24,073 nucleotides of DNA from a virus (lineage: Duplodnaviria; Heunggongvirae; Uroviricota; Caudoviricetes), in the IMG/VR virus record IMGVR_UViG_2681813321_000026, positions 1 through 24,073 of that record. One strand, written 5' to 3'. The notes under the pieces are model-generated. The model ran no database searches. It saw only the letters and a list, made by a program, of their open reading frames with translations, and was not told where the DNA came from. Positions 784 through 20,618 of the stretch are shown here, one piece after another; the stretch's first letter is position 1, and every line of letters begins with the position of its first letter. A program made the position numbers and the translations under genes.

Positions 784-1237
784 CGAATTTCTCCCGTGTA
801 CAGGAACAGAGTTAAAAAGCCGGAACCGGAATCAAATTACAGGATGGCCATCTGCCAGTGGCTGGTCGTAAAAAAAAGGCCACGCCATGCGCAGCCGGAA
901 ATAAAGGGATAACGATGATAGTTTGAGAAAAACAGAAACAACACTTTTGTGGCAAAGCATGGTGCCGGGTGCCTCCCGGTGAATTCAGTATCAGCACCTG
1001 AATCCGCGATTATCCCATATACCTGGTTGCTGATCGCCCCTCCGCACAGGGGGATTCACCATGCCAGTTTCTTTTAACAAACTCCCCGCAAACCAGACAA
1101 CAGTCAACCGCCTGAATTGTGAGGTATTTAAAAATTTCAACGGGTAACTGATACCCTGCTAATCGCCTGATGCTTTCTTTTTCAGCAACGGGAAAGCAAC
1201 AACCACCACACCCACCAGCCGCCCATTTACCACAAAT

Positions 1238-1445: not shown

Positions 1446-1560
1446 GTCTTTTTCCGGTTAACGTGACACACCAATAACTCTTGTCGAAAAAGCCAGCAAG
1501 CTGAAAGACCGGTATTCACCGCCGCCAGCGCGTTTACTGTACTGGACCGATTTCAGCCAT

Positions 1561-1590
1561 AAAAAAACCCGCTCGCGGCTGGTTTAAGCT
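1561..1590 (-). terminator. Possible weak terminator (tR'-like) about 60-80 nt downstream of Q
   Basis: T7 run on minus strand (A7 at 1561-1567 on plus) preceded by a short GC-rich imperfect hairpin (ccgc/gcgg). Stem is weak, so confidence is low. Confidence 0.2.
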
Positions 1591-1642
1591 GTGTGGCGTA
1601 GTAACCACTCTTAACATACTGACATACTTTTTGCGGACCGCG

Positions 1643-2035
1643 CTAATAATTTTTTACTTTTTTGGGCAGCCAGTCGTCCATCTCCAGCCTTACACCCAGC
1701 ATCGACAGACATCCGTCAATAAATCCTTCAGCAATCTGCATCTCAATTCGTATTGCCTTTTCGCTCTTCTTTCTTGTTCTGGCAATCTGCCTTTTTGATA
1801 TGCGCAGCAGATAATGAGCTACCAGCAGCGAATACTCGTCCGGTTTTTTCTTCTTCAGGCGCGTAAGGCAGTTTTCGATGATAAGGCCGTCATCATCGCT
1901 GCAGGCCGGGCGAGGTTTAGCGGTGGATGGTAAAAGGCCTTTAAATCCAGCAGCTATCGGAGAATAGTCCACCCCGGCGTTACCACTTGCCGCCCATGCC
2001 CCCCAGCGTTCGAGAACCATCTGAATATCACGCAT
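1643..2035 (-). CDS. Q: Late-gene antiterminator Q (82/933W-type Q family)
   Basis: Protein from the ATG at 2035 begins MRDIQMVLERWGAWAASGNAGVDYSPIAAGFKGL, recognised as phage Q antiterminator family. ORF track start at 2044 is a GTG; the ATG at 2035 overlaps the upstream stop by 1 nt (coupled). TAG stop at 1645..1643. Confidence 0.75.
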   Translation of the reverse strand: MRDIQMVLERWGAWAASGNAGVDYSPIAAGFKGLLPSTAKPRPACSDDDGLIIENCLTRLKKKKPDEYSLLVAHYLLRISKRQIARTRKKSEKAIRIEMQIAEGFIDGCLSMLGVRLEMDDWLPKKVKNY

Positions 2036-2892
2036 TATTCGCACTCACCAACCAGATTGAGAATGACCGCTGCACCGTCGTCTTCCATGCATTCACCCTT
2101 ACCACTTGCCAGAAACCAGCGGCACACCTCCACGGCTTCAGCGCGTGTCACCGGTTTGATGGTTGCCAGCAATTTTTCAAGGTAGCGCTCCCGGTCATAT
2201 ACCGATTCGTGATGCTCAGAGTAACCAAACTCATCGCCCTGTTCTTTAGTTGCAGTGTGGCGAACACTGTAGAGCCAGTCCCAGTAAACGAACTCGCGAA
2301 CAACATCAGACAGCGTATAAGGCTCAGGCAGCACATCGCGATATCCATCAACAAATGCCCGACGCTGTTCATCAATTTCGTTCATGCGGCTGCCGCCAAT
2401 GCTTCCGGCTTTTTTCTCTGCCGCAGTCCAGCCCCAGAGATGATCGTTGATAAATTTCTGGGAAGACCTGATGACCCGCTCTGCTTCCACATCTTCGAGC
2501 GCTGCTTCATAGCTACCAAACGTAGCCCTGACTGATGCCGCTTTTTTGATGTTCTCCCGGGCGTTCCTGATAACCTGCGCAGGGTTATCCATGCCGATGA
2601 TGCCGAACGCAACCTGGAAAGGTTCGTAACCATTCGCCAGCAGATAACGCGAATAGCGTTCCTGAGCCTCTTTTGGGGAAATTTTAATTTTCACCAGCGC
2701 AGCCTCAGCAGCATCCAGATGTGCGGGTTCGTTCAGACGGATAACCTCCAGCACCCAAAGATAAGCATCAGTCTGCTTATGCCCGGTGATTCTCCGTTGC
2801 TCTGGCAGGGGCTTGATGTTTGCGAGGGCGGAGCTGTACGCTGCCGTCGGGATGGTGAATAGTGCTTTATGTTCGTTATTATCAGTACGCAT
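2035..2892 (-). CDS. Hypothetical protein (285 aa) between primase and Q
   Basis: Long ORF, ATG at 2892 overlapping primase stop by 1 nt; stop overlaps Q start. No motif recognised. Confidence 0.6.
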   Translation of the reverse strand: MRTDNNEHKALFTIPTAAYSSALANIKPLPEQRRITGHKQTDAYLWVLEVIRLNEPAHLDAAEAALVKIKISPKEAQERYSRYLLANGYEPFQVAFGIIGMDNPAQVIRNARENIKKAASVRATFGSYEAALEDVEAERVIRSSQKFINDHLWGWTAAEKKAGSIGGSRMNEIDEQRRAFVDGYRDVLPEPYTLSDVVREFVYWDWLYSVRHTATKEQGDEFGYSEHHESVYDRERYLEKLLATIKPVTRAEAVEVCRWFLASGKGECMEDDGAAVILNLVGECE

Positions 2893-3860
2893 TACGCAAC
2901 CGCCTTTTTCTTATGGAAAACCAGCTCTCGAACCTGATCACCGTTCATGAGCATATTGTTGAAATCATCGTGATCCGGCCAGTACACGCTCACGCGCTGC
3001 AGGTCATTCTTTGCCATCAGATTGGCATGAGCACATTCGCAAGCCGCAGCCAGCCCGGTGGCGCTGTTCTCGTCACGGTCGGCAAAAATAATCAGGTGCA
3101 GAACACCAGCTGGTACGCGAAACTTTTTCATAAAGCCGCTGTTAATGGTTGCCCAGGTGTTCACGTTATAAATCTGGTGCGCTGACAGCGCTGTTTCGAT
3201 GCCTTCGGCGATACCCAGAGTGCTGGCGACAGGAAACATGCGGATAGCTACAGAACGAGCGTGATCCAAATAGTTATCTTCCTGCAGGGATTTGAGGCGC
3301 TTTGCACTGCTACCGATATCTGCTTTTTTATCACCATCAAGCAGAGTCTGGTGCAGATAGCACAACTCCCCTTTATCGTCCGTAGCAAGTGAATAAAGAG
3401 ACTGGAACACACTCCCGTTGTGTCTCTGCCTGGCATTGAACCGGATCGCCTCAGCAGGAAGACTGAATATTCCACGAGAATTAAGATACGCTGCGCCGGA
3501 TGTACCACGCAGTGCCTCCAGTTTTGAAAACTTGCTCAATACCCGTTTGCGTAAGCTGGTGGCGCTGCTGGTTACCGGGATTTTAACCCGTTGGTAATCA
3601 TTACCGATCAGGCGGTCTATTTCGGTACAAATCTCGTTAAATGGCTTCGCCTGTGTCAGGGTGACAAGTTTCATACCATCGCCACTACCACATACACAGA
3701 TCCACGTTCCTGCACCGTCGCGGTCGTCAATTCGGAACTTGCCACGTGCACCGCATACCGGGCATTCACCCTTGAAGTGATTTTTTCCGGTTATCGGCGG
3801 CAGACCGAAGTGCTCTAATATTTCAGGCCAGCGGCCTTTCGCTGCATCTGCTGTTTTCAT
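2892..3860 (-). CDS. DNA primase (N-terminal zinc-ribbon plus Toprim domain)
   Basis: 322-aa ORF with CPVCGARGKFRIDDRDGAGTWICVCG zinc-ribbon motif typical of phage/plasmid primases; ATG at 3860 lies 1 nt after helicase stop. Confidence 0.8.
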   Translation of the reverse strand: MKTADAAKGRWPEILEHFGLPPITGKNHFKGECPVCGARGKFRIDDRDGAGTWICVCGSGDGMKLVTLTQAKPFNEICTEIDRLIGNDYQRVKIPVTSSATSLRKRVLSKFSKLEALRGTSGAAYLNSRGIFSLPAEAIRFNARQRHNGSVFQSLYSLATDDKGELCYLHQTLLDGDKKADIGSSAKRLKSLQEDNYLDHARSVAIRMFPVASTLGIAEGIETALSAHQIYNVNTWATINSGFMKKFRVPAGVLHLIIFADRDENSATGLAAACECAHANLMAKNDLQRVSVYWPDHDDFNNMLMNGDQVRELVFHKKKAVA

Positions 3861-3861
3861 C

Positions 3862-5520
3862 TTACTGACTCAGACTGTTTATATTTTTCTGGAGTTGGTG
3901 CTTTGCCTGCATGATGCGCCAGGCCTCACTGCCTGCCGGTATCTCACGTCGTTCATCACGTTCCTGAGATAAATCAATCGTTGTTTGTGCGTTTTCAGTG
4001 ACCTTCTGAACCCGCTGGTGGCCTTTGGCAAACCGGATCAGTTTGTGTCTGATGTAGTTATTTACCTCAGGGGTAATTTCCATCGGAAAGTTACTCAGTC
4101 CGTCAGGCCACTCACCGAACTTTTCCCGGAAAGTGTGAGCACACCATCCGTCACTGACTGGACGCCCCAGCGAAGCACGCTGGCGCTGATAAAATTTGAT
4201 CTGACTCCACCAGGACTGTTTCTCTGCCTTCGTCGACTGATGCTGATTTTTACCCAGCTTATTAAGTTTGCGGCTAGTGTCAGTATCAACGTCTTCACCT
4301 CGCAGCGGCTTGTGTCCACATTTCGGGCAAACATAGACGCCTGCTGGCTTCATGTAGTGGCATTGAGGGCATTCATGTGGCAGTTTTTCGGCCCGTTCCT
4401 CAACTGCCCGGCGCGCGCTTTCCTCCATGCCGTCAGACTTACCGGGAAGCTCGTCGTACTCGATTGAATCCGGATAACCCAAACGGTGCACGGTGCCGCT
4501 GTGATCGAAGATAAGGCAGGACTCTTTACCCGGTGCGGTGCGCAGCCCACGCCCGAGAGCCTGCAACCAGCGAATTTCGCTTTTTGTTGGCCTGGCGTAG
4601 ATGATGCAACGAACGTCACTATCAAAGCCGGCCACCAGAACGCCCACACTAACGATGATTTTCGTTGCACCGGTTTCAAAGCGGTGAATGATGGTCTGGC
4701 GCTCATCTACCGGAGTGTCGGCGGTCATTACCTCAGCGTTAACACCCGCCAGGTTAAACTGGATTGTCAGATAATTGGCGTGAGCTACGTTGACGCAGAA
4801 AGCGATGGTAGGTAAATCCCGACCATTCTCCAGCCAGTTCTGTACGATGTCGCCCACCAGCGTAGAGCCGCACATGATTTCAGCCAGCTGTGTTTCGTTG
4901 TAATCGCGGCCGTACTCAAGCGAAGATGTGGTTTTAACACCTTTCAGATCCGGCTTAGTTGGCGCGTAAAATTCGTATTTACTCAGATCGCCACGCTGGA
5001 TTAACTCGCCGATGGTGGTCGGCTTAATCAGTCGGTCATAGTATTTGCCCAGGAACGGAGAAAACGGAGTACCCGACAGGCCAATCACCTTTACGCCTTT
5101 GCCGCGCAGACGTTCGATATCCTTCAGGATGCGTTTTTTACGCAGGTGCGCTTCGTCGATAATCAGCAGATCGATATTTTCAGGAAAAACACGACGAATA
5201 AGCGTGTCAGCGCTGGCAATCTGAATTTTCCGGTCCGGATCGTAGTTCGGGTGATCCGCCCAGATATAACCGATTTCATCTCCAGGTAAACCATACTGCA
5301 CGAACCGATTAGCCGTCTGACCAATCAGGATGGTGTACGGAACACAGAACAGAACACGCATACCACGGCTGACAAAACCAGCAACTATGAAGGCTGCCAG
5401 ACCCGTTTTACCGCTACCTGTTGGCGAGTAAACCATGAAGGTGTCGTTTGCCTTCCAGTCACGGCGCAACATGTTTAACGCTCGTTCCTGTGCAAAATTC
5501 GGCGTGATCGTCAGCTCCAT
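3862..5520 (-). CDS. Superfamily-2 DEAH-box helicase with C-terminal zinc ribbon (replication helicase)
   Basis: 552-aa ORF; Walker A SPTGSGKTG, motif II IIDEAH, C-terminal CPQC...CPKC. SD GGGAG 7 nt upstream of ATG at 5520. Confidence 0.85.
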   Translation of the reverse strand: MELTITPNFAQERALNMLRRDWKANDTFMVYSPTGSGKTGLAAFIVAGFVSRGMRVLFCVPYTILIGQTANRFVQYGLPGDEIGYIWADHPNYDPDRKIQIASADTLIRRVFPENIDLLIIDEAHLRKKRILKDIERLRGKGVKVIGLSGTPFSPFLGKYYDRLIKPTTIGELIQRGDLSKYEFYAPTKPDLKGVKTTSSLEYGRDYNETQLAEIMCGSTLVGDIVQNWLENGRDLPTIAFCVNVAHANYLTIQFNLAGVNAEVMTADTPVDERQTIIHRFETGATKIIVSVGVLVAGFDSDVRCIIYARPTKSEIRWLQALGRGLRTAPGKESCLIFDHSGTVHRLGYPDSIEYDELPGKSDGMEESARRAVEERAEKLPHECPQCHYMKPAGVYVCPKCGHKPLRGEDVDTDTSRKLNKLGKNQHQSTKAEKQSWWSQIKFYQRQRASLGRPVSDGWCAHTFREKFGEWPDGLSNFPMEITPEVNNYIRHKLIRFAKGHQRVQKVTENAQTTIDLSQERDERREIPAGSEAWRIMQAKHQLQKNINSLSQ

Positions 5521-5793
5521 TGTGCAGCTCCCGTGCTGATGAGATAATAATTTTGTGATGTGGTTTTCATGGATTCCCCCTCACATGGCTGGTGGCCTCC
5601 CCAAAGGCTGCCAGCCTCCCTTCTGATTCAGCTCCTCTGAAAAATCACTCTTCCAGGAAGAACCCTTTTCGTTTCTCAGCGCCTGAGCGCTTTGTACTAC
5701 CTTGCTGATACGGGCGTTTTTTTAAATTGCGCCCTTAAGACAGTGATCTACTTAACCAATGGATCTCTCCTGTTGGAAAAGACCCTATTCCTG

Positions 5794-5836
5794 CCCCAAC
5801 ACCCAATCCCCCCTTACCCCCCTTACCCTCTTCCCC
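5794..5836 (-). other. C-rich (plus) / G-rich (minus) tract with six runs of 3-6 G: potential G-quadruplex motif on the minus strand
   Basis: Plus strand ccccaacacccaatccccccttaccccccttaccctcttcccc; includes tandem ccccccTTA units. Lies in the 413-bp non-coding gap between the 102-aa ORF and the helicase gene. Confidence 0.4.
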
Positions 5837-5933
5837 ATAAAAACGTACTACTTCCCTAGTACACATGAGGAGTTGGGTCAGTTGGTTGCCAACCTGAACA
5901 GGCACCTTTAAGCCTGCTTCTGTTCGGGTACCT

Positions 5934-6242
5934 TTAAACCCGAAACAGTGAGGAGCGCGATTGCGATCCAGCCAGGGGAGGTTCGGCTGTATACCCCTGT
6001 AAAGCTCTGCCCTGATTTCTTACAAACAGGCGGAGCCTTGTGTTTGCTTCGTGCCTTGCTCTGTTCTCCTTGCGGAATGAAACAGGCTCAGCGTCAAAAG
6101 TGATTTCGTATACCTCCGCATATTTCAGGGCAACCTTCCGTCTCAGTGACGGAGGCAGCCCCTGTAACTGCTGCTGAATCCACTCTTCGTCTGCCTGGCA
6201 GTACCTAGATGGCATCTCTGTCTGAACGTAATTCTGGGACAT
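5934..6242 (-). CDS. Hypothetical protein (102 aa) in the cII/replication-initiator position
   Basis: ATG at 6242 with strong SD (GGGAGGTGA); overlaps the 3' end of the cro-like gene by 38 nt in another frame. No motif recognised. Confidence 0.55.
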   Translation of the reverse strand: MSQNYVQTEMPSRYCQADEEWIQQQLQGLPPSLRRKVALKYAEVYEITFDAEPVSFRKENRARHEANTRLRLFVRNQGRALQGYTAEPPLAGSQSRSSLFRV

Positions 6243-6492
6243 ACAAGCCCTTCACCTCCCCCGTGCGCGCTAAGCTTGGATGTGGAAAAAGCTCTGATAG
6301 GTCTGGCCGAAATTCATACGCTTGGATCTTTCCGTCGACAGCTGCAACCAATAACGGCACAAATTCTGGTGAAATCTTGTTCTTGCAGTTCAACCAATCG
6401 CAGACTGTTGACTGGGCCTTTCCGCATCGCTTGGCTAAGGCTTGCTGACTTCCAAGAATCTCAATAGCTTTCTCTATGGCTTTATGTTTCAT
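6205..6492 (-). CDS. Cro-like HTH regulator (Cro/CI-type, YdaS-like), 95 aa
   Basis: Start set to ATG at 6492 (MKHKAIEKAIEILGSQQALAKRCGKAQSTVCDW, HTH) with SD AGGAGA 7 nt upstream; ORF track start at 6543 is an upstream in-frame extension. Divergent from cI. Confidence 0.75.
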   Translation of the reverse strand: MKHKAIEKAIEILGSQQALAKRCGKAQSTVCDWLNCKNKISPEFVPLLVAAVDGKIQAYEFRPDLSELFPHPSLARTGEVKGLYVPELRSDRDAI

Positions 6493-6493
6493 A

Positions 6494-6578
6494 ATCGCAT
6501 CTCCTATTGAACGCATAATAACAACAGGAAAAGCGATATTCAACGTTAAACATAGAATATTTATCGGAAAGCCGATAA
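6494..6578. promoter_or_regulatory. OR-like divergent promoter/operator region between cro-like and cI genes
   Basis: Palindromic 14-mers ATCGCatctCCtAT (6494-6507) and ATCGGaaagCCGAT (6563-6576). Candidate minus-strand cro promoter TTGAAT-N17-TATTAT (-35 at 6543..6538, -10 at 6520..6515). Candidate plus-strand -10 TAGAAT at 6553-6558 with poor -35 (PRM-like). Confidence 0.5.
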
Positions 6579-6611
6579 ACTAGCCAAGATAGAGAGGGGA
6601 GGAAAATCGCA

Positions 6612-7304
6612 ATGACATTTTCAGAACGACTTGATTTAGCTATGCGCAACGCAAAATTTACGCAAGGTAGGCTGGCCAAAGAAGTGGGTATGGCTCAGTC
6701 CAGTGTTAATCAACTACTTAACAAAGCCAACGGTTCCAGAAAAACAGTCGAAATAGCAAAAGTTTTGGGCGTTAACCCGGAATGGCTCGCATCGGGTGTT
6801 GGCCCAATGGAAATCGTGACCTCTGCAGACTCACACCAAATACGTAACATTTCTGAAGATTGGGTTACTGATTCGTATGTCGTGGATGTTTTAGACATCA
6901 GATATAGTTGCGGACCTGGTAGTTATAACTCTGATTTTCCTGATATTGTCAGATCTATAGCGATAGAACCAGGATACGCATCAAGAGTTTTTGGCGGCAG
7001 ACCAGCATCAGCAATCAAAGCAATAAACGCCCACGGCGACAGTATGAAAGGCACAATAGACCCTGAAGACTTGGTATTTGTAGATGTATCAGTTCGCACA
7101 TTTAATGGTGATGGTATATACGCCTTTACATACTCTGGAACATCGCACATCAAAAGACTTCAAAAAATCAAAGATACTCTAACGGTGATATCTGACAACC
7201 CAGCTTACAAGGATTGGGCTATCGAACCGGAAGACTTCGAACAACTTCACATTGACGGAAAAGTAATTGTCAGTTGGCCTATGACACTACACCGTTTTGC
7301 ATAA
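6612..7304 (+). CDS. cI: CI-type prophage repressor (N-terminal XRE HTH, C-terminal S24 LexA-like peptidase domain)
   Basis: 230 aa; HTH QGRLAKEVGMAQSSVNQL; S24 catalytic motifs GDSM and downstream Lys; SD GGAGG upstream of ATG. Confidence 0.9.
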   Translation: MTFSERLDLAMRNAKFTQGRLAKEVGMAQSSVNQLLNKANGSRKTVEIAKVLGVNPEWLASGVGPMEIVTSADSHQIRNISEDWVTDSYVVDVLDIRYSCGPGSYNSDFPDIVRSIAIEPGYASRVFGGRPASAIKAINAHGDSMKGTIDPEDLVFVDVSVRTFNGDGIYAFTYSGTSHIKRLQKIKDTLTVISDNPAYKDWAIEPEDFEQLHIDGKVIVSWPMTLHRFA

Positions 7305-7322
7305 GCAAAAATCATTTAACCC

Positions 7323-7348
7323 GCCCACTCTTAAGTGGGCTTTTTTTT
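7323..7348 (+). terminator. Rho-independent terminator after cI
   Basis: Perfect 7-bp stem gcccact/agtgggc with 4-nt loop ctta followed by T8. Confidence 0.8.
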
Positions 7349-7356
7349 GGGAAAAA

Positions 7357-7398
7357 ATCGATAAACCGATTGACAGGTGAAATCGGTAAACCTATTAT
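7357..7398 (+). promoter_or_regulatory. PL-like promoter with two operator sites
   Basis: TTGACA (7370-7375), 17-nt spacer, TATTAT (7393-7398). Operator-like 14-mers ATCGAtaaaCCGAT (7357-7370, overlapping -35) and ATCGGtaaaCCtAT (7382-7395, overlapping spacer/-10), same family as the OR sites. Confidence 0.7.
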
Positions 7399-7447
7399 CT
7401 TGACATAGGTATCGAACTCACCAAAGCAATTATAGAGGATGAGAAAA

Positions 7448-7858
7448 ATGTCATCGTATATGGGATTACCAACAAATCAGCACGATGCTCTTGAGAATAT
7501 TCAGCTCTTAGTAGGGACTGGTGCACTACTGTATAGCAGCAATAACCCTGAGTTAATTGAACTTGCCAGCTCCATCCTGGCTGTAACTCAAAAATATAGC
7601 CTCACCGCGTCACGTTTATGCAAACAAAATTTAGCTATTAATTCCCAGAATCGGATTCGCACCCAACGCGAAACCTGCGGCTTAACAACCGCCGAACTCG
7701 CTAGGCTGCTCGATCTCGATGAAGAAATTATCATCCAGTGGGAGAGCGGAGAGTACGAACCAACCATCAGCATGCTTATCCCTCTGGCTAATGTTCTTGG
7801 CTGTGATCCAATGTTGTTATTGACTGATGCTTATAAACAAAATCAGGAGGAAGCATAA
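7448..7858 (+). CDS. Hypothetical protein with C-terminal XRE-family HTH (first gene of PL operon)
   Basis: Start set to ATG 7448 (SD GAGGA 8 nt upstream); track start 7439 has no spacing to the SD. C-terminal HTH LTTAELARLLDLDEEIIIQWESGEYEPTISMLIPLANVLG. Confidence 0.6.
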   Translation: MSSYMGLPTNQHDALENIQLLVGTGALLYSSNNPELIELASSILAVTQKYSLTASRLCKQNLAINSQNRIRTQRETCGLTTAELARLLDLDEEIIIQWESGEYEPTISMLIPLANVLGCDPMLLLTDAYKQNQEEA

Positions 7859-7859
7859 G

Positions 7860-8051
7860 ATGAAAATGTTCAAAGGCCTTACCAACGAACCGGAGACAAC
7901 TTTTCATCACATTGCCGTACTGCTTGAAGCGGGGTTAATCATTTCGGCTTCCGGTGATGAAGAATGTGATGAACTTTCGGATGATATCTTTTTACTGGCA
8001 CAACAATACGCCAGAAGCGCATGCGATGCATTTAAGGAGCAAAGAACATGA
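7860..8051 (+). CDS. Small acidic hypothetical protein (63 aa)
   Basis: ATG 7860 preceded by AGGAGG (9-nt spacing); track ORF 7827 is an in-frame upstream extension overlapping the previous gene. Confidence 0.55.
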   Translation: MKMFKGLTNEPETTFHHIAVLLEAGLIISASGDEECDELSDDIFLLAQQYARSACDAFKEQRT

Positions 8052-8239
8052 AAACTCCATTAAATATTCTTGAGGAAGTGGCAGCACAAATAAAAGAGAA
8101 TACATCAATGCTTGAATTTATATTTAAGAATTCGCCCGACTCAGGAGAGACAGACGATTATTTATGTTGCCTCATTCGCTCCATGAATAAAACCTGTGAA
8201 ATGGCTTACGCGTATATCGACACACTGCGCAACGAATAA
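8048..8239 (+). CDS. Small acidic hypothetical protein (63 aa)
   Basis: ATG overlaps stop of previous gene (ATGA coupling). Confidence 0.55.
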   Translation: MKTPLNILEEVAAQIKENTSMLEFIFKNSPDSGETDDYLCCLIRSMNKTCEMAYAYIDTLRNE

Positions 8240-8423
8240 AGAAAACTCAATAAACAATCACCCATAAAAACATAACGGTCTCTGGTCGGGAATTTCCACA
8301 ACCTGAAAATGGTGGTGATGCATGAAAAACAGAAGTGCTTATAAAACCGCATTATTAATGGCTAATGCAGGATACTGGTCAGTTGCAATACTGTTTCTCA
8401 GGAAAGCATACGGGAAATAACAA

Positions 8424-8783
8424 ATGACACATGAACCCATTAATACATATCGTCGCCGTATAGCTGTTGCGGCACTCCATCGAATAAAACGTAAAACAGG
8501 TGGTAATCTGCTTATTGTTGACCTTCCTGATGGGAACATTACGACCATAGAAATAACTGAACAGTTTATAAACCAGTTGCTGTTACGCTTCGAAGGTATT
8601 ACCCGTGGTGAATTGGGCCGGGTGGAGGGTGAAACCGAAATCCACACTGCATACCAGAATGCTATCGGGATTAATCAACATACTGAATACCTGACTGAAA
8701 CCGGAAAGTTAATTATAGACAACCTTTTTCAAGAGATTATTGATTACGCGAAAGAAAAATATATCAGCGGAGGAATTAACTGA
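8424..8783 (+). CDS. Hypothetical protein (119 aa)
   Basis: ORF with ATG start; stop overlaps start of next gene. No motif recognised. Confidence 0.5.
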   Translation: MTHEPINTYRRRIAVAALHRIKRKTGGNLLIVDLPDGNITTIEITEQFINQLLLRFEGITRGELGRVEGETEIHTAYQNAIGINQHTEYLTETGKLIIDNLFQEIIDYAKEKYISGGIN

Positions 8784-8998
8784 TGGCTAATTTATCCCCT
8801 GTATCTGTTGTGCACGAAAAAGTGCAGATCGTTATGACAATTGAAAATGGCCAAGTCACAGGTGTCTGCAAAGTCCGCGATGGCGAGCTGATTGCCAGCA
8901 TGGATACATTCATACGGCTGGCAGAAAGAGCGGGGTATCAGATAACAGCACCTGCTCAGGAGGAAACCGGTGGCATTAACAGCAACACGCATTCCTGA
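8783..8998 (+). CDS. Hypothetical protein (71 aa)
   Basis: ATG 8783 with GGAGGA 8 nt upstream, overlapping stop of previous gene. Confidence 0.55.
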   Translation: MANLSPVSVVHEKVQIVMTIENGQVTGVCKVRDGELIASMDTFIRLAERAGYQITAPAQEETGGINSNTHS

Positions 8999-9184
8999 GC
9001 GGATCCACCGGCAGGCATTGCAGGTCCTGTTGTTGTACCGATGCCGACGGATATTTCCGCATCGGATACAGCGCACCGGATATCTCAGTCTGAAGGTTAA
9101 CCGTCGCTGGCGGCTGTTATCGAAAGACGACGGCCGGAACTGGGAAGTAATGAGTCATGAACGTTATTCGGGAGAAATAAAGAA

Positions 9185-9577
9185 ATGATCGACAACCGCA
9201 CCGCCAGCACCATTGACCAGGCATTACAGAAACATGATACACCCGTCGGCCCGTTATTTTTTGTAACACGCCACGGAAGAACAAAAAAATGCCTCACCCG
9301 AAAAACGGCAATTCGTTACCTGGCATTCTTTATGACCACCCGCGCTTTTGAACGTTCAGGATTCCGACAACGCTATCCTGACAAGCGTTTTATCTTCAAC
9401 AGGAATGAGATATGGAAACGTGGAGAATCAACCACAGAGTATACCCGCGCACACCAGCGAACAATCAGACGACTGCGCAGACTCATCGCCAGGAAACAGT
9501 ATACAGAAAAATGGTTCAGAAAATATGACACATGGAGCGCCGGATATTACGAACTGATGGCAACAAAACCATTCTGA
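9185..9577 (+). CDS. Hypothetical basic protein (130 aa, Arg/Lys-rich C-terminus)
   Basis: ATG 9185 with GGGAGA upstream. No motif recognised. Confidence 0.5.
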   Translation: MIDNRTASTIDQALQKHDTPVGPLFFVTRHGRTKKCLTRKTAIRYLAFFMTTRAFERSGFRQRYPDKRFIFNRNEIWKRGESTTEYTRAHQRTIRRLRRLIARKQYTEKWFRKYDTWSAGYYELMATKPF

Positions 9578-9637
9578 CGTAAACGAAATTAACCATGACG
9601 CAATTAAATAAGGCAAGCCGAATACATCAGGAGGACC

Positions 9638-9826
9638 ATGAACATTTATTTCAGAATAGTTATATCACTGGCAATTATCACATGTATTTACGGATTAATC
9701 GTTCCGGCCCTCATATCAATGAAGGATACGGTAGCAGTGATTTCTGGCTTTGCTCTGGCGTGTCTGACCCCGCCCTGCATTTATGCCATTTATAAGGGTC
9801 TTTCTTTTTCTAAGGATAAAAGATGA
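9638..9826 (+). CDS. Small membrane protein (62 aa, two predicted TM helices)
   Basis: AGGAGGA upstream of ATG; two hydrophobic stretches; stop overlaps start of SPFH gene (ATGA). Confidence 0.55.
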   Translation: MNIYFRIVISLAIITCIYGLIVPALISMKDTVAVISGFALACLTPPCIYAIYKGLSFSKDKR

Positions 9827-10137
9827 AAAAATTACTTTTTGCTTTAGCCCTTGTTCTGCCGACCATTGGCCTTGTCGGTTGCGATCGCGTTGAGCCTGGT
9901 AATGTGGGCATCAAAGTAAACAAACTGGGCGACGATAAAGGCGTCGGTGAAGTGGTCGGTGTTGGGCGCTACTGGACGGGATGGAACACTGAGGTTTACA
10001 TCTTCCCGACCTTTAAGCAGATGAAGACCTACGATGATCCATTCAGTTTCCAGATGAGTGACGGTACAACCATCGGCTATCACATCGGCGTGGCCTACAA
10101 AGTTGATCCATCCAAAGTTACCACAGTCTTTCAGACC

Positions 10138-10167
<30 letters not shown>
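9823..10167 (+). pseudogene. Truncated copy of SPFH/band-7 lipoprotein gene (first 105 codons, then unrelated sequence after repeat boundary at 10137)
   Basis: Identical to the first 105 codons of the 275-aa gene at 19791-20618, then diverges and terminates after 9 foreign codons. Confidence 0.75.
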
Positions 10168-13550
<3,383 letters not shown>

Positions 13551-14795: not shown

Positions 14796-15122
14796 TCAGG
14801 GTGCTGAAGGACTAAAGATAAATGTTTTCTTCACGCCTTTACGCGGCTTGTCCTTCTCAAATCGCCATTTTGCCATCGCCTTTACAACCTGCTCATCAAA
14901 CAGATGGTGCGGCTCTGAACGGATAAACTCAATTCGGGTGACAGTACCATCAGCACCAATATCAAACTTCACATCAACCCGTCCCTTTATATAATTTGCC
15001 GCGGCATAGGCCGGATATTGTGGTAATGCCTTAACCAACTGTCGAGGCATATCTGTTTTATGTTGCGTACAGCCCATAACCAAAGAAGACAACAAAATAA
15101 TTAACGGAAGATTTCTTTTCAT
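14796..15122 (-). CDS. Lipoprotein consisting of a TonB C-terminal-like domain (about 108 aa)
   Basis: Signal peptide MKRNLPLIILLSSLVMGC with lipobox-like VMGC; mature region PQYPAYAAANYIKGRVDVKFDIGADGTVTRIEFIRSEPHHLFDEQVVKAMAKWRFEKDKP aligns closely with E. coli TonB C-terminal domain (PQYPARAQALRIEGQVKVKFDV...AMRRWRYEPGKP) from memory. Alternative upstream ATG at 15137 has no SD. Confidence 0.75.
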   Translation of the reverse strand: MKRNLPLIILLSSLVMGCTQHKTDMPRQLVKALPQYPAYAAANYIKGRVDVKFDIGADGTVTRIEFIRSEPHHLFDEQVVKAMAKWRFEKDKPRKGVKKTFIFSPSAP

Positions 15123-15138
15123 TTTTATTCCCGGCATA

Positions 15139-15158
15139 GATAAGAATAAGTCTTATTC
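15139..15158. promoter_or_regulatory. AT-rich perfect palindrome (GAATAAG-T-CTTATTC preceded by GATAA) overlapping the putative promoter of the TonB-like gene
   Basis: 7-1-7 perfect inverted repeat at 15144-15158; overlaps a minus-strand TAGAAT -10-like hexamer; partial resemblance to Fur-box GATAAT hexamers. Confidence 0.3.
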
Positions 15159-15761
15159 TAACAATGCAGCCCTGTCGGTCATCAATCCTCTGCTTAATGG
15201 CAATGACAATTATCCGACTTAAATCACAAATCAGACACATGACATAACAGAGTTTGCGAGGTAACACATCGTCCGGTTTCTTCCACCATCGCACCGGACC
15301 AGCGACCATGAGGGGACAACGCCGCGCTCCGTTTACGCGGTAAACCCCGGTGTGTATCGTTTTTGATTATCCCCGCACACTCTCGCAGAGGAGTCTCCCT
15401 GTCGGGCTGCGGTCTCTGTTAATGCAGGAATACGGCGACAATACCGCGCATGGATAATAAGGTCGCTCAACACACTGGCTGTAATTCAGCGGATACCATT
15501 CGGCATTTATCAGTATTCATCACACACTCAACGGTGAATTCTTCATGCGTGGCATTCACTTCATATGTTCGTGAATAACATTCAGTGCATTTACCTCTGA
15601 ACACCTCTTCAATCACTCTTCCAGGAAGAACCCTTTTCGTTTCTCAGCGCCTGAGCGCTTTGTACTACCTTGCTGATACGGGCGTTTTTTTAAATTGCGC
15701 CCTTAAGACAGTGATCTACTTAACCAATGGATCTCTCCTGTTGGAAAAGACCCTATTCCTG

Positions 15762-15804
15762 CCCCAACACCCAATCCCCCCTTACCCCCCTTACCCTCTT
15801 CCCC
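15762..15804 (-). other. Second copy of the C-rich/G-rich potential G-quadruplex tract
   Basis: Identical to 5794-5836. Confidence 0.4.
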
Positions 15805-15901
15805 ATAAAAACGTACTACTTCCCTAGTACACATGAGGAGTTGGGTCAGTTGGTTGCCAACCTGAACAGGCACCTTTAAGCCTGCTTCTGTTCGGGTACC
15901 T

Positions 15902-16210
15902 TTAAACCCGAAACAGTGAGGAGCGCGATTGCGATCCAGCCAGGGGAGGTTCGGCTGTATACCCCTGTAAAGCTCTGCCCTGATTTCTTACAAACAGGCG
16001 GAGCCTTGTGTTTGCTTCGTGCCTTGCTCTGTTCTCCTTGCGGAATGAAACAGGCTCAGCGTCAAAAGTGATTTCGTATACCTCCGCATATTTCAGGGCA
16101 ACCTTCCGTCTCAGTGACGGAGGCAGCCCCTGTAACTGCTGCTGAATCCACTCTTCGTCTGCCTGGCAGTACCTAGATGGCATCTCTGTCTGAACGTAAT
16201 TCTGGGACAT
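15902..16210 (-). CDS. Hypothetical protein (102 aa), copy 2
   Basis: Identical to 5934-6242. Confidence 0.55.
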   Translation of the reverse strand: MSQNYVQTEMPSRYCQADEEWIQQQLQGLPPSLRRKVALKYAEVYEITFDAEPVSFRKENRARHEANTRLRLFVRNQGRALQGYTAEPPLAGSQSRSSLFRV

Positions 16211-16460
16211 ACAAGCCCTTCACCTCCCCCGTGCGCGCTAAGCTTGGATGTGGAAAAAGCTCTGATAGGTCTGGCCGAAATTCATACGCTTGGATCTTTC
16301 CGTCGACAGCTGCAACCAATAACGGCACAAATTCTGGTGAAATCTTGTTCTTGCAGTTCAACCAATCGCAGACTGTTGACTGGGCCTTTCCGCATCGCTT
16401 GGCTAAGGCTTGCTGACTTCCAAGAATCTCAATAGCTTTCTCTATGGCTTTATGTTTCAT
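16173..16460 (-). CDS. Cro-like HTH regulator, copy 2
   Basis: Identical to 6205-6492. Confidence 0.75.
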   Translation of the reverse strand: MKHKAIEKAIEILGSQQALAKRCGKAQSTVCDWLNCKNKISPEFVPLLVAAVDGKIQAYEFRPDLSELFPHPSLARTGEVKGLYVPELRSDRDAI

Positions 16461-16461
16461 A

Positions 16462-16546
16462 ATCGCATCTCCTATTGAACGCATAATAACAACAGGAAAA
16501 GCGATATTCAACGTTAAACATAGAATATTTATCGGAAAGCCGATAA
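16462..16546. promoter_or_regulatory. OR-like promoter/operator region, copy 2
   Basis: Identical to 6494-6578. Confidence 0.5.
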
Positions 16547-16579
16547 ACTAGCCAAGATAGAGAGGGGAGGAAAATCGCA

Positions 16580-17272
16580 ATGACATTTTCAGAACGACTT
16601 GATTTAGCTATGCGCAACGCAAAATTTACGCAAGGTAGGCTGGCCAAAGAAGTGGGTATGGCTCAGTCCAGTGTTAATCAACTACTTAACAAAGCCAACG
16701 GTTCCAGAAAAACAGTCGAAATAGCAAAAGTTTTGGGCGTTAACCCGGAATGGCTCGCATCGGGTGTTGGCCCAATGGAAATCGTGACCTCTGCAGACTC
16801 ACACCAAATACGTAACATTTCTGAAGATTGGGTTACTGATTCGTATGTCGTGGATGTTTTAGACATCAGATATAGTTGCGGACCTGGTAGTTATAACTCT
16901 GATTTTCCTGATATTGTCAGATCTATAGCGATAGAACCAGGATACGCATCAAGAGTTTTTGGCGGCAGACCAGCATCAGCAATCAAAGCAATAAACGCCC
17001 ACGGCGACAGTATGAAAGGCACAATAGACCCTGAAGACTTGGTATTTGTAGATGTATCAGTTCGCACATTTAATGGTGATGGTATATACGCCTTTACATA
17101 CTCTGGAACATCGCACATCAAAAGACTTCAAAAAATCAAAGATACTCTAACGGTGATATCTGACAACCCAGCTTACAAGGATTGGGCTATCGAACCGGAA
17201 GACTTCGAACAACTTCACATTGACGGAAAAGTAATTGTCAGTTGGCCTATGACACTACACCGTTTTGCATAA
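16580..17272 (+). CDS. cI: CI-type prophage repressor, copy 2
   Basis: Identical to 6612-7304. Confidence 0.9.
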   Translation: MTFSERLDLAMRNAKFTQGRLAKEVGMAQSSVNQLLNKANGSRKTVEIAKVLGVNPEWLASGVGPMEIVTSADSHQIRNISEDWVTDSYVVDVLDIRYSCGPGSYNSDFPDIVRSIAIEPGYASRVFGGRPASAIKAINAHGDSMKGTIDPEDLVFVDVSVRTFNGDGIYAFTYSGTSHIKRLQKIKDTLTVISDNPAYKDWAIEPEDFEQLHIDGKVIVSWPMTLHRFA

Positions 17273-17290
17273 GCAAAAATCATTTAACCC

Positions 17291-17316
17291 GCCCACTCTT
17301 AAGTGGGCTTTTTTTT
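17291..17316 (+). terminator. Rho-independent terminator after cI, copy 2
   Basis: Identical to 7323-7348. Confidence 0.8.
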
Positions 17317-17324
17317 GGGAAAAA

Positions 17325-17366
17325 ATCGATAAACCGATTGACAGGTGAAATCGGTAAACCTATTAT
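17325..17366 (+). promoter_or_regulatory. PL-like promoter with operators, copy 2
   Basis: Identical to 7357-7398. Confidence 0.7.
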
Positions 17367-17415
17367 CTTGACATAGGTATCGAACTCACCAAAGCAATTA
17401 TAGAGGATGAGAAAA

Positions 17416-17826
17416 ATGTCATCGTATATGGGATTACCAACAAATCAGCACGATGCTCTTGAGAATATTCAGCTCTTAGTAGGGACTGGTGCACTACTGT
17501 ATAGCAGCAATAACCCTGAGTTAATTGAACTTGCCAGCTCCATCCTGGCTGTAACTCAAAAATATAGCCTCACCGCGTCACGTTTATGCAAACAAAATTT
17601 AGCTATTAATTCCCAGAATCGGATTCGCACCCAACGCGAAACCTGCGGCTTAACAACCGCCGAACTCGCTAGGCTGCTCGATCTCGATGAAGAAATTATC
17701 ATCCAGTGGGAGAGCGGAGAGTACGAACCAACCATCAGCATGCTTATCCCTCTGGCTAATGTTCTTGGCTGTGATCCAATGTTGTTATTGACTGATGCTT
17801 ATAAACAAAATCAGGAGGAAGCATAA
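17416..17826 (+). CDS. Hypothetical protein with C-terminal XRE HTH, copy 2
   Basis: Identical to 7448-7858. Confidence 0.6.
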   Translation: MSSYMGLPTNQHDALENIQLLVGTGALLYSSNNPELIELASSILAVTQKYSLTASRLCKQNLAINSQNRIRTQRETCGLTTAELARLLDLDEEIIIQWESGEYEPTISMLIPLANVLGCDPMLLLTDAYKQNQEEA

Positions 17827-17827
17827 G

Positions 17828-18019
17828 ATGAAAATGTTCAAAGGCCTTACCAACGAACCGGAGACAACTTTTCATCACATTGCCGTACTGCTTGAAGCGG
17901 GGTTAATCATTTCGGCTTCCGGTGATGAAGAATGTGATGAACTTTCGGATGATATCTTTTTACTGGCACAACAATACGCCAGAAGCGCATGCGATGCATT
18001 TAAGGAGCAAAGAACATGA
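17828..18019 (+). CDS. Small acidic hypothetical protein (63 aa), copy 2
   Basis: Identical to 7860-8051. Confidence 0.55.
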   Translation: MKMFKGLTNEPETTFHHIAVLLEAGLIISASGDEECDELSDDIFLLAQQYARSACDAFKEQRT

Positions 18020-18207
18020 AAACTCCATTAAATATTCTTGAGGAAGTGGCAGCACAAATAAAAGAGAATACATCAATGCTTGAATTTATATTTAAGAATT
18101 CGCCCGACTCAGGAGAGACAGACGATTATTTATGTTGCCTCATTCGCTCCATGAATAAAACCTGTGAAATGGCTTACGCGTATATCGACACACTGCGCAA
18201 CGAATAA
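18016..18207 (+). CDS. Small acidic hypothetical protein (63 aa), copy 2
   Basis: Identical to 8048-8239. Confidence 0.55.
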   Translation: MKTPLNILEEVAAQIKENTSMLEFIFKNSPDSGETDDYLCCLIRSMNKTCEMAYAYIDTLRNE

Positions 18208-18391
18208 AGAAAACTCAATAAACAATCACCCATAAAAACATAACGGTCTCTGGTCGGGAATTTCCACAACCTGAAAATGGTGGTGATGCATGAAAAACAG
18301 AAGTGCTTATAAAACCGCATTATTAATGGCTAATGCAGGATACTGGTCAGTTGCAATACTGTTTCTCAGGAAAGCATACGGGAAATAACAA

Positions 18392-18751
18392 ATGACACAT
18401 GAACCCATTAATACATATCGTCGCCGTATAGCTGTTGCGGCACTCCATCGAATAAAACGTAAAACAGGTGGTAATCTGCTTATTGTTGACCTTCCTGATG
18501 GGAACATTACGACCATAGAAATAACTGAACAGTTTATAAACCAGTTGCTGTTACGCTTCGAAGGTATTACCCGTGGTGAATTGGGCCGGGTGGAGGGTGA
18601 AACCGAAATCCACACTGCATACCAGAATGCTATCGGGATTAATCAACATACTGAATACCTGACTGAAACCGGAAAGTTAATTATAGACAACCTTTTTCAA
18701 GAGATTATTGATTACGCGAAAGAAAAATATATCAGCGGAGGAATTAACTGA
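18392..18751 (+). CDS. Hypothetical protein (119 aa), copy 2
   Basis: Identical to 8424-8783. Confidence 0.5.
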   Translation: MTHEPINTYRRRIAVAALHRIKRKTGGNLLIVDLPDGNITTIEITEQFINQLLLRFEGITRGELGRVEGETEIHTAYQNAIGINQHTEYLTETGKLIIDNLFQEIIDYAKEKYISGGIN

Positions 18752-18966
18752 TGGCTAATTTATCCCCTGTATCTGTTGTGCACGAAAAAGTGCAGATCGT
18801 TATGACAATTGAAAATGGCCAAGTCACAGGTGTCTGCAAAGTCCGCGATGGCGAGCTGATTGCCAGCATGGATACATTCATACGGCTGGCAGAAAGAGCG
18901 GGGTATCAGATAACAGCACCTGCTCAGGAGGAAACCGGTGGCATTAACAGCAACACGCATTCCTGA
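18751..18966 (+). CDS. Hypothetical protein (71 aa), copy 2
   Basis: Identical to 8783-8998. Confidence 0.55.
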   Translation: MANLSPVSVVHEKVQIVMTIENGQVTGVCKVRDGELIASMDTFIRLAERAGYQITAPAQEETGGINSNTHS

Positions 18967-19152
18967 GCGGATCCACCGGCAGGCATTGCAGGTCCTGTTG
19001 TTGTACCGATGCCGACGGATATTTCCGCATCGGATACAGCGCACCGGATATCTCAGTCTGAAGGTTAACCGTCGCTGGCGGCTGTTATCGAAAGACGACG
19101 GCCGGAACTGGGAAGTAATGAGTCATGAACGTTATTCGGGAGAAATAAAGAA

Positions 19153-19545
19153 ATGATCGACAACCGCACCGCCAGCACCATTGACCAGGCATTACAGAAA
19201 CATGATACACCCGTCGGCCCGTTATTTTTTGTAACACGCCACGGAAGAACAAAAAAATGCCTCACCCGAAAAACGGCAATTCGTTACCTGGCATTCTTTA
19301 TGACCACCCGCGCTTTTGAACGTTCAGGATTCCGACAACGCTATCCTGACAAGCGTTTTATCTTCAACAGGAATGAGATATGGAAACGTGGAGAATCAAC
19401 CACAGAGTATACCCGCGCACACCAGCGAACAATCAGACGACTGCGCAGACTCATCGCCAGGAAACAGTATACAGAAAAATGGTTCAGAAAATATGACACA
19501 TGGAGCGCCGGATATTACGAACTGATGGCAACAAAACCATTCTGA
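19153..19545 (+). CDS. Hypothetical basic protein (130 aa), copy 2
   Basis: Identical to 9185-9577. Confidence 0.5.
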   Translation: MIDNRTASTIDQALQKHDTPVGPLFFVTRHGRTKKCLTRKTAIRYLAFFMTTRAFERSGFRQRYPDKRFIFNRNEIWKRGESTTEYTRAHQRTIRRLRRLIARKQYTEKWFRKYDTWSAGYYELMATKPF

Positions 19546-19605
19546 CGTAAACGAAATTAACCATGACGCAATTAAATAAGGCAAGCCGAATACATCAGGA
19601 GGACC

Positions 19606-19794
19606 ATGAACATTTATTTCAGAATAGTTATATCACTGGCAATTATCACATGTATTTACGGATTAATCGTTCCGGCCCTCATATCAATGAAGGATACGGT
19701 AGCAGTGATTTCTGGCTTTGCTCTGGCGTGTCTGACCCCGCCCTGCATTTATGCCATTTATAAGGGTCTTTCTTTTTCTAAGGATAAAAGATGA
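19606..19794 (+). CDS. Small two-TM membrane protein (62 aa), copy 2
   Basis: Identical to 9638-9826. Confidence 0.55.
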   Translation: MNIYFRIVISLAIITCIYGLIVPALISMKDTVAVISGFALACLTPPCIYAIYKGLSFSKDKR

Positions 19795-20618
19795 AAAAAT
19801 TACTTTTTGCTTTAGCCCTTGTTCTGCCGACCATTGGCCTTGTCGGTTGCGATCGCGTTGAGCCTGGTAATGTGGGCATCAAAGTAAACAAACTGGGCGA
19901 CGATAAAGGCGTCGGTGAAGTGGTCGGTGTTGGGCGCTACTGGACGGGATGGAACACTGAGGTTTACATCTTCCCGACCTTTAAGCAGATGAAGACCTAC
20001 GATGATCCATTCAGTTTCCAGATGAGTGACGGTACAACCATCGGCTATCACATCGGCGTGGCCTACAAAGTTGATCCATCCAAAGTTACCACAGTCTTTC
20101 AGACCTACCGCAAAGGCGTGGACGACATTACCGACACCGACCTGCGCCAGAAGATAGCCGACGCACTCAACCGACTGGCCAGCAAAATGACCACCGACAA
20201 ATTTATCGACGGCGGCAAGTCTGAGCTGCTGGATGCAGCTCTTAAAGACATTCAGGAAGAAATGACGCCCATCGGTATTCAGGTAATGAGCCTCTCATAT
20301 GTGGGTAAGCCGGAGTACCCACCTACTGTTATCGACAGCATTAATGCCAAAGTCACGGCGAACCAGAAAACCCTGCAACGCGAGCAGGAAGTAAAACAGC
20401 GCGAAGCGGAAGCCAACATGTTGCGCGCGGAAGCTGCCGGACAGGCAGATGCGATTCGCACAAAAGCCCAGGCCGAAGCCGATGCTATTCGTTTACGCGG
20501 TGAAGCTCTGCGCCAGAACCCCGGTGTTATGGAGCTGGAAGCCATCAACAAGTGGAACGGTACACTGCCGCAATACATGACCAGCGGTGCCAACACACCA
20601 TTTATTCAGGTTAAGTAA
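19791..20618 (+). CDS. SPFH/band-7 (HflC/stomatin-like) domain lipoprotein, 275 aa
   Basis: Lipoprotein signal MKKLLFALALVLPTIGLVGC (lipobox LVGC); SPFH-like core and C-terminal Ala/Glu/Gln/Arg-rich coiled-coil segment (REQEVKQREAEANMLRAEAAGQADAIRTKAQAEADAIRLRGEAL) typical of HflC/QmcA-type proteins; SD AAGGA upstream. Confidence 0.8.
   Translation: MKKLLFALALVLPTIGLVGCDRVEPGNVGIKVNKLGDDKGVGEVVGVGRYWTGWNTEVYIFPTFKQMKTYDDPFSFQMSDGTTIGYHIGVAYKVDPSKVTTVFQTYRKGVDDITDTDLRQKIADALNRLASKMTTDKFIDGGKSELLDAALKDIQEEMTPIGIQVMSLSYVGKPEYPPTVIDSINAKVTANQKTLQREQEVKQREAEANMLRAEAAGQADAIRTKAQAEADAIRLRGEALRQNPGVMELEAINKWNGTLPQYMTSGANTPFIQVK

Follow-up and report, generated by a model that had tools for sequence, protein, structure and literature searches.

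Four consecutive genes on the minus strand of the IMG/VR virus record IMGVR_UViG_2681813321_000026 (positions 1 to 24,073; this whole stretch of 24,073 nucleotides (nt) is called the window below) encode a superfamily 2 (SF2) helicase, a DNA primase, a protein of 285 amino acids (aa) referred to here as X, and the antiterminator Q. With high confidence, these genes belong to the rightward early (PR-type) operon of a lambda-like Escherichia coli prophage of the type represented by the Salmonella phage Fels-1 and the Stx2f phages. As in the phages of that type, the block lies downstream of a divergent cI/cro pair and runs collinearly from helicase through primase and X to Q. This replication-to-Q arrangement had been known before, and public records include annotated copies that match it exactly or almost exactly. 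An earlier note on this DNA had presented the layout as a departure from typical lambdoid phages; synteny shows instead that it is the standard layout of the group that includes Fels-1, phi467 and the Cronobacter phage ENT39118, and neither unusual nor new. Within this layout the interval between primase and Q is, judged by its gene content across relatives, this phage group's counterpart of the nin region: variable, dispensable and exchangeable, and occupied here by one gene.

The closest relatives place the block firmly in this group. In megablast searches of phage records, the helicase-primase-X segment is identical in DNA to the Escherichia phage vB_EcoS-611R1 at 99.6%, to phi467 at 95% and to Fels-1 at 86% of positions, and the best match among complete E. 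coli genomes, strain E110019, reaches 99.8% identity over 70% of the window. The X protein is 82-100% identical to the copies in phages of the Fels-1/phi467 type. Fels-1 (NC_010391) has a cro analogue, small open reading frames (ORFs), the helicase STM0901.1n, the primase STM0901, the X homologue STM0902 (82.5% aa identity) and Q, with 1- to 4-nt overlaps between genes. It differs from the window in its Q, a 271-aa protein of family PF03589 as opposed to a 130-aa protein of family PF06530, and in a 122-aa ORF upstream of the helicase, where the window has a non-coding variant. The Stx2f phage phi467 (LN997803) carries the same gene block, with an X that is 92% identical in protein, but its Q belongs to PF03589 and stx2f lies downstream. 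The E. coli prophage of EC9682 differs in having a 115-aa PF06530 Q followed by a toxin pair of ADP-ribosyltransferase and AB5 subunit, and VR50 has the same X/Q joint as the window, its Q there being annotated QuuD. X occurs in ~2% of complete E. coli genomes (97 of 5,426), and 29 of the 30 matches listed have a Toprim or primase gene next to it; it is very common in Salmonella contigs.

The two replication proteins are also homologues of Eru1A and Eru1B of the Stx2a phage TL-2011c. The helicase, in whose translation GSGKT and DEAH motifs can be read, is 66% identical to Eru1A (YP_007001450) over 510 aa. The primase is 58% identical to Eru1B (YP_007001451) over 320 aa, and its translation contains CPVC...CVC, AEGIE and DRDE, in keeping with a predicted primase of the Zn-ribbon/Toprim kind (P4 alpha N-terminal type). 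In TL-2011c, as in the window, a DEAD/DEAH helicase and then a Toprim primase lie directly downstream of cro and a small ORF, the joints overlap, and Q belongs to PF06530 (48% identity between the two Q proteins). TL-2011c differs, however, in carrying eru1C (DUF1367/NinB-like), NinG and NinH between primase and Q, and X has no similarity to any of them. Because counterparts of eru1A and eru1B are present and one of eru1C is not, the window block is a relative of Eru1 and not Eru1 as defined. Llarena et al. 2021 read the Eru1 homologues as a replication unit, 'EHEC phage replication unit 1' (PMC8044961). Subsequent typing distinguished thirteen Eru types, several of which have very short cI-to-Q intervals and one of which has a primase-polymerase directly followed by Q (PMC8951638). 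Compact cI-to-Q regions are documented for Eru-type, 'non-lambdoid' Stx phages (PMC8044961, PMC8951638).

What occupies the primase/Q interval varies from one phage to the next. A full-length X is found there in the window, Fels-1, phi467, ENT39118 and E. coli prophages. The slot of KPP5665-2 holds a 158-aa homologue of the C-terminal half of X only, and six further Klebsiella phage records match this half alone (seven records in all), whereas the slot of TL-2011c holds the NinB-like Eru1C, NinG and NinH. In Fostie (PP925832) and YP3 (PV092592), the helicase and primase are ~82-84% identical in DNA to those of the window and occupy the same place after cI/cro, but the slot is empty and the primase runs directly into Q, with a 4-nt overlap in Fostie and a 6-nt gap in YP3. 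A tblastn search of both complete records found no X (E <= 1e-3), and TL-2011c also lacks it. Since the slot is empty in two of these relatives and filled by NinB, NinG and NinH in a third, X is optional and not a core replication protein. An essential replication role for X was rejected on the basis of the same three phages.

In lambda, the nin region consists of ren and ninA-ninI between P and Q. The window slot shares this map position between the replication genes and Q, but holds one gene as against about ten, none of it homologous to nin, and no terminators are predicted in it. At the level of homology, the absence of a nin region, which the earlier note had pointed out, was borne out. 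A fusion of nin genes was looked for in X and rejected, as no nin family occurs among the 21 Pfam families matched by X and 57 diverse relatives (E <= 0.01). Furthermore, NinB, NinG and NinH of TL-2011c gave no blastp match in the loci that carry X relatives.

The four genes abut one another as a single co-directional block, as the note had described, and both the ORF list and a reading of the junctions on the coding strand agree on this. Upstream of Q, the ORFs run from 5520 to 3862 (552 aa), 3860 to 2892 (322 aa) and 2892 to 2035 (285 aa). Between helicase and primase, the TAA at 3864..3862 is separated by a single G (3861) from the ATG at 3860..3858 (TAAgATG). The primase TAA (2894..2892) shares one base with the X ATG (2892..2890), and the X TAA (2037..2035) shares one base with the Q ATG (2035..2033), both joints reading TAATG. 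Q is listed as an ORF of 133 aa from a GTG at 2044 to 1643, and comprises 130 aa from the ATG at 2035. Because the Pfam model of Q begins at residue 4 of the GTG ORF, the ATG is the likely start and the 1-nt overlap at 2033-2037 the likely joint. The corresponding junctions are annotated as a 1-nt gap or as 1- to 4-nt overlaps in Fels-1, phi467, E110019, EC9682, KPP5665-2, ENT39118 and VR50, and the tight joints are kept even where Q belongs to an unrelated family.

Tight packing of the helicase, primase, X and Q genes is therefore real and conserved, yet it is typical of phage operons and not distinctive. Overlaps of 1 to 4 nt are also the rule elsewhere in the window, for instance in the leftward operon at 8048/8051, 8783 and 9185/9188, and in TL-2011c overlapping junctions run through the nin genes too. 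The note had proposed that Q is translationally coupled to the replication genes. The overlaps on which that proposal rested are present, and stop/start overlaps of this kind would permit coupling by termination and reinitiation, but they are generic in phages and coupling itself is at most suggested by them. With respect to transcription, a terminator scan returned 10 terminator-like sites in 7.4 kb as compared with 7.0 +/- 2.5 expected, two of them within 5520..1643 and both weak, and so no intrinsic terminator is predicted above chance inside the block. A single transcript extending through Q would fit the layout and the scan.

The joint between X and Q is also a point of exchange. In megablast searches, the change of DNA homology falls inside the Q start codon: alignments with phi467, Fels-1 and 611R1 run from 2033 onward, and those with the Q region of Stx2a phages stop at 2035. 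In one of these Stx2a phages, Stx2_14040, this Q allele is preceded by a YdfU-like gene, which itself comes after a replication module with an O-type gene and a helicase. The Q gene next to X or its short form belongs to one of two unrelated families, namely PF06530 in the window and EC9682, and PF03589 (~260-276 aa) in Fels-1, phi467, ENT39118 and KPP5665-2. The two families and the homology break at the joint together indicate that X and Q have been exchanged independently. The Q of the window is intact across the whole Pfam model.

Downstream of Q lies an STnc100-family RNA element that ends in a strong terminator-like hairpin, and this region is probably the late-leader/tR' region of these phages. 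Fels-1 (three copies), E110019 (beside AgvB) and KPP5665-2 also have STnc100 matches after Q, and in TL-2011c the family is matched after stx (beside AsxR). No late promoter or qut site for Q was identified. In EC9682 (14995-16281 of the extracted locus), a scabin-related ADP-ribosyltransferase and a subtilase-family AB5 binding subunit, which together resemble the ArtAB toxin, are encoded just downstream of Q, in the position that stx occupies in Stx phages. The features of the block and its surroundings are collected in Table 1.

Table 1. Features of the predicted early operon and its flanks (positions in the window)
Feature	Position	Strand	Evidence
cI-type repressor (helix-turn-helix (HTH) + Peptidase_S24), divergent from operon	6612..7304	+	Pfam Peptidase_S24 7.5e-17; PHROG 4 transcriptional repressor
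PR-like promoter candidate, TTGAAT-17-TATTAT with upstream TG	6515..6543	-	consensus scan, 9/12 matches; pattern only
cro-like HTH regulator	6205..6543 as listed; annotated homologue corresponds to 6492..6205	-	Pfam YdaS_toxin 1.2e-14; PHROG 35; E110019 annotation
102-aa protein (function unknown), operon gene 2	5934..6242	-	PHROG 852 3.7e-41
Untranslated spacer, ~410 nt, upstream of helicase	5521..5933	-	sequence
SF2 DEAD/DEAH-box helicase, 552 aa, Eru1A homologue, C-terminal Zn-ribbon region	3862..5520	-	Pfam ResIII, Helicase_C, DEAD above cut-offs; PHROG 16 1e-104
DNA primase, 322 aa, Eru1B homologue	2892..3860	-	Pfam Zn_Ribbon_Prim 3.7e-14, DUF7146, Toprim_3 1.8e-14; PHROG 510 'DNA primase' 1.8e-130
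X, acidic all-alpha 285-aa protein (function unknown), optional occupant of primase/Q slot	2035..2892	-	PHROG 6204
Q antiterminator, 130 aa from ATG	1643..2035	-	Pfam PF06530 E = 3.1e-52, 175.9 bits against cut-off 26, profile 1-118 of 118
STnc100-family RNA element downstream of Q	921..1093	-	Rfam RF02076, 108 bits against gathering score 47
Strong intrinsic-terminator-like hairpin + T8, candidate tR', at end of STnc100 element	878..896	-	terminator scan: 8 pairs, 6 GC, then TTTTTTTT

A working model of the operon can be assembled from these parts. Upon loss of the cI-type repressor, transcription would start from the PR-like promoter near 6543-6515 and proceed on the minus strand through the cro-like gene, the 102-aa gene and the ~410-nt spacer, and the same message would continue through helicase, primase, X and Q. 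The helicase and primase would serve as the phage's own replication proteins, in place of lambda O and P. As the last, abutting cistron, Q would accumulate in step with the replication proteins and without the N-dependent delay of lambda. It would then act on the downstream late promoter region, presumably overriding the late-leader terminator at 896-878 after the STnc100-like RNA. X would most likely be an accessory factor that binds protein, is not essential and accompanies the helicase-primase block.

Several observations weigh against this account. Overlaps are so frequent across the whole window that they are no proof of translational coupling, and a weak promoter-like match at 2063-2034, just upstream of Q, makes an internal start possible (consensus scan). 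The ~410-nt spacer could hide signals that simple scans miss. A replication origin was not located, as scans of 1500-6000 for iterons, tandem or direct repeats and AT-rich dips gave nothing convincing. The frequent position of X beside many types of helicase and primase could merely reflect its place in the operon. Lastly, Q is annotated as frameshifted in E110019 (11797-12193 of that locus), where the terminase, portal and TerB-like genes are among other pseudogenes, which implies that decay has set in for at least some prophages of this type.

The region upstream of the helicase is itself mosaic. A segment of ~295 nt in the spacer (5635-5929) is a non-coding variant common to E110019 and ENT39118 (local blastn), and it takes the place of a segment that encodes an ORF of 122-124 aa in Fels-1, phi467 and EC9682. 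Homology to phi467 and EC9682 accordingly stops at 5634/5635 and restarts at 5930 in the same kind of search. Within the variant, at about 5830-5792, the coding strand carries a G-rich tract, GGGTAAGGGGGGTAAGGGGGGATTGGGTGTTGGGGCAGG, with a strong GC skew. A 19-codon upstream ORF (5570..5511) has a stop that overlaps the helicase start. Further upstream, the 102-aa gene is conserved in E110019, VR50 and phi467, and the candidate PR-like promoter is placed upstream of the cro-like gene, a position that fits its proposed role. The counterpart of the cI-type repressor in E110019 is annotated as a LexA-family regulator. On the plus strand, a strong terminator stands directly after cI (7323-7340), and it is followed by a near-consensus promoter at 7370-7398 (TTGACA-17-TATTAT, 11/12). 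The first early-left gene (7439-7858) encodes an HTH protein with the PHROG label 'CII-like regulator'. An N-like antiterminator, another point of difference from lambda, was not recognized among the eight early-left ORFs scanned (7439-9577 and 20662-21411). A tRNA scan of the window found none.

X matches PHROG 6204 ('unknown function') over its entire length (E = 2.4e-182, residues 1-285 on profile positions 1-285 of 286), but has no match in Pfam, NCBIfam or PADLOC, and sequence and profile searches of the PDB gave nothing below E = 0.17. The description of X as uncharacterized in the earlier note thus holds after profile searching. Relatives were collected by an exhaustive HMMER search over 1.84 billion representatives, which yielded 136 clusters at E <= 0.001, and X was aligned with 57 diverse members of this set (58 sequences). 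In this alignment, 33 relatives have an N-terminal extension of at least 35 residues, and at least 10 of the 58 sequences match an HTH model (Sigma70_r4_2, HTH_23 and others, each Pfam family matching at most 10). One relative has a Bro-N domain and one (P0207) a ParB-like N-terminus, read from its sequence and giving no Pfam hit; many are labelled 'helix-turn-helix domain-containing' by NCBI. The window copy has neither the extension nor the HTH. Invariant motifs are DNxxHRxLFxLPP near the N-terminus and TGDxEVDAxLWL. An AlphaFold2 model built with the 58-sequence alignment is all-helical, with a pLDDT of 88.5, a pTM of 0.83 and a lower-confidence linker around residues 145-185. Foldseek searches with the model found no match in the PDB or BFVD at E <= 0.001, and neither profile nor fold searches of the PDB revealed similarity to a known loader, initiator or clamp-binding protein. 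The conserved N-terminal HxxLF peptide may bear a loose likeness to beta-clamp-binding motifs. The isoelectric point (pI) is 5.4 for the whole protein and 4.6 for the C-terminal domain, and this acidity argues against direct DNA binding by the form that has no HTH.

The genomic surroundings of X relatives were examined at 45 loci (Pseudomonas, Burkholderiales and others), found with an alignment of a 13-sequence subset, and on metagenomic contigs. At ~30 of the 45, a helicase or primase gene lies on the same strand within ~3.6 kb of the X relative, usually just upstream, and the same strand and distance apply in all enterobacterial phages examined. The neighbors span at least five unrelated types of replication gene, among them the SF2 and Toprim pair seen here. 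In one locus (L010), a Zn-ribbon-Toprim-DUF927 protein precedes SSB, so that the order reads primase-helicase, SSB, X and a PF03589 Q. Other neighbors are Toprim with a DUF927 helicase, PriCT_2-AAA_25, full DnaB, short DnaB_C, and PriCT_2-Toprim directly downstream of the X relative. At the remaining loci, X relatives lie near integrases, cI-like repressors or Bro-N/ORF6N anti-repressor-like genes; among these, L014, L017, L024, L042 and L046 place the X relative close to an integrase or in a Bro-N setting and away from any replication gene. The Q query proteins gave no match beside the Pseudomonas and Burkholderiales relatives. Nothing speaks more strongly for an accessory role linked to replication than this recurrent association with replication genes, but the association is equally expected of a slot that follows the replication genes in temperate elements.

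It is a tentative possibility that X is a true replication accessory factor, an adaptor that recruits parts of the host replisome or places helicase or primase at the origin, non-essential but improving replication. The company of at least five unrelated replication gene types speaks for such a role, as does the fact that X, helicase and primase are inherited together in E. coli and Salmonella, between mosaic breaks at 2033 and 5634, and the HTH, Bro-N and ParB-like additions at the N-terminus of relatives suggest recruitment to DNA. The earlier note had suggested an accessory factor of this kind, and the proposal is weakened by TL-2011c and by Fostie and YP3, which manage without X, the latter two with close homologues of the same helicase and primase; from the company that X keeps, it may still be linked to replication. 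The integrase-proximal and Bro-N loci far from replication genes, the acidic window copy with no DNA-binding domain and the lack of likeness to a known loader, initiator or clamp-binding protein also count against it. A nin-like 'moron' or a host-directed gene (for anti-defence, host takeover or recombination), placed where temperate phages keep dispensable early genes, is an equally tentative possibility. The slot is variable and dispensable, being found empty or with half of X, X, or NinB, NinG and NinH; the protein is acidic and all-helical with no enzyme signature; and some relatives sit in early-region contexts beside Bro-N/ORF6N anti-repressor-like genes. Against random cargo stand the wide and strong conservation of X, its invariant motifs and its recurrence beside replication genes, all of which exceed what would be expected of such a gene, and no PADLOC model or nin family matched.

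The constant presence of Q directly after X in every enterobacterial example, including L010 with its different replicase, raises the question of whether X might instead control late gene expression, acting with or on Q (on its timing, stability or specificity) or on transcription generally, and the N-terminal parts of relatives do match sigma-70 region 4 and HTH_23 models. This seems improbable, because X abuts two unrelated Q families with homology breaking exactly at the joint, Fostie and YP3 carry the same kind of Q with no X, no Q query protein found a match beside the Pseudomonas and Burkholderiales relatives, and the window copy has no HTH. Defence systems include pairs of helicase and Toprim genes, and the cluster of helicase, Toprim protein and X could by Gabija-like logic be a prophage-borne anti-phage system. 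The helicase does give partial matches to the PbeA, DpdF and type IV restriction helicase domains in PADLOC, but these cover only the generic SF2 C-terminal lobe, and PADLOC-DB 2.0 gave no match for primase, X, Q or the 102-aa ORF. Moreover, the primase has the Zn-ribbon and Toprim_3 architecture of a primase and matches PHROG 510 at 1.8e-130, the cluster fills the O/P position between cro and Q with no other replication genes annotated in the phage regions examined, and the literature on Eru1 reads the homologues as a replication unit (PMC8044961). The defence reading is extremely improbable, and was rejected given the partial and generic helicase matches, the primase architecture and the O/P position.

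One feature of the window calls for caution. An exact direct repeat of 4,495 base pairs (bp) places 5643-10137 again at 15611-20105. Its first copy starts 122 nt before the helicase and lies 9 nt from the mosaic break at 5634/5635. The entire immunity and early-left region, from the 102-aa gene through cro and cI to a truncated SPFH gene, is thereby present twice. Between the two copies, 5,473 bp encode a lipoprotein (PHROG Rz-like spanin), a lambda-type Nu1, terminase A and a truncated portal protein, whose ORF continues into the repeat as a chimeric ORF (9844-11451). The repeat junctions (10137/10138 and 15610/15611) are both absent from the 5,426 complete E. coli genomes, although each half of them is found there. 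The repeat may be a rare rearrangement, by partial duplication or by recombination between prophages, or an assembly chimera; it leaves helicase, primase, X and Q untouched.

As an operon, the block adds little to what is known: it is a further copy of the replication-to-Q layout of Fels-1, the Stx2f phages and ~2% of complete E. coli genomes, and stands close to Eru1. It does present the primase/Q interval as a minimal equivalent of the nin slot, with Q alleles swapped exactly at the start codon, and this swap is a case of clean mosaicism at a gene boundary beside toxin cargo such as stx2f or ArtAB-like genes. The remaining interest lies in X, which is widespread and confidently modelled, with no detected fold relative or known function. 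There is a small chance that X represents an undescribed fold and family, a two-domain, acidic, all-helical core of ~260 residues, often fused to an N-terminal HTH, that serves as a portable adaptor for the replication modules of phages and mobile elements in Gamma- and Betaproteobacteria. Such an adaptor might, for example, link the element's helicase, primase or DNA to a component of the host replisome.

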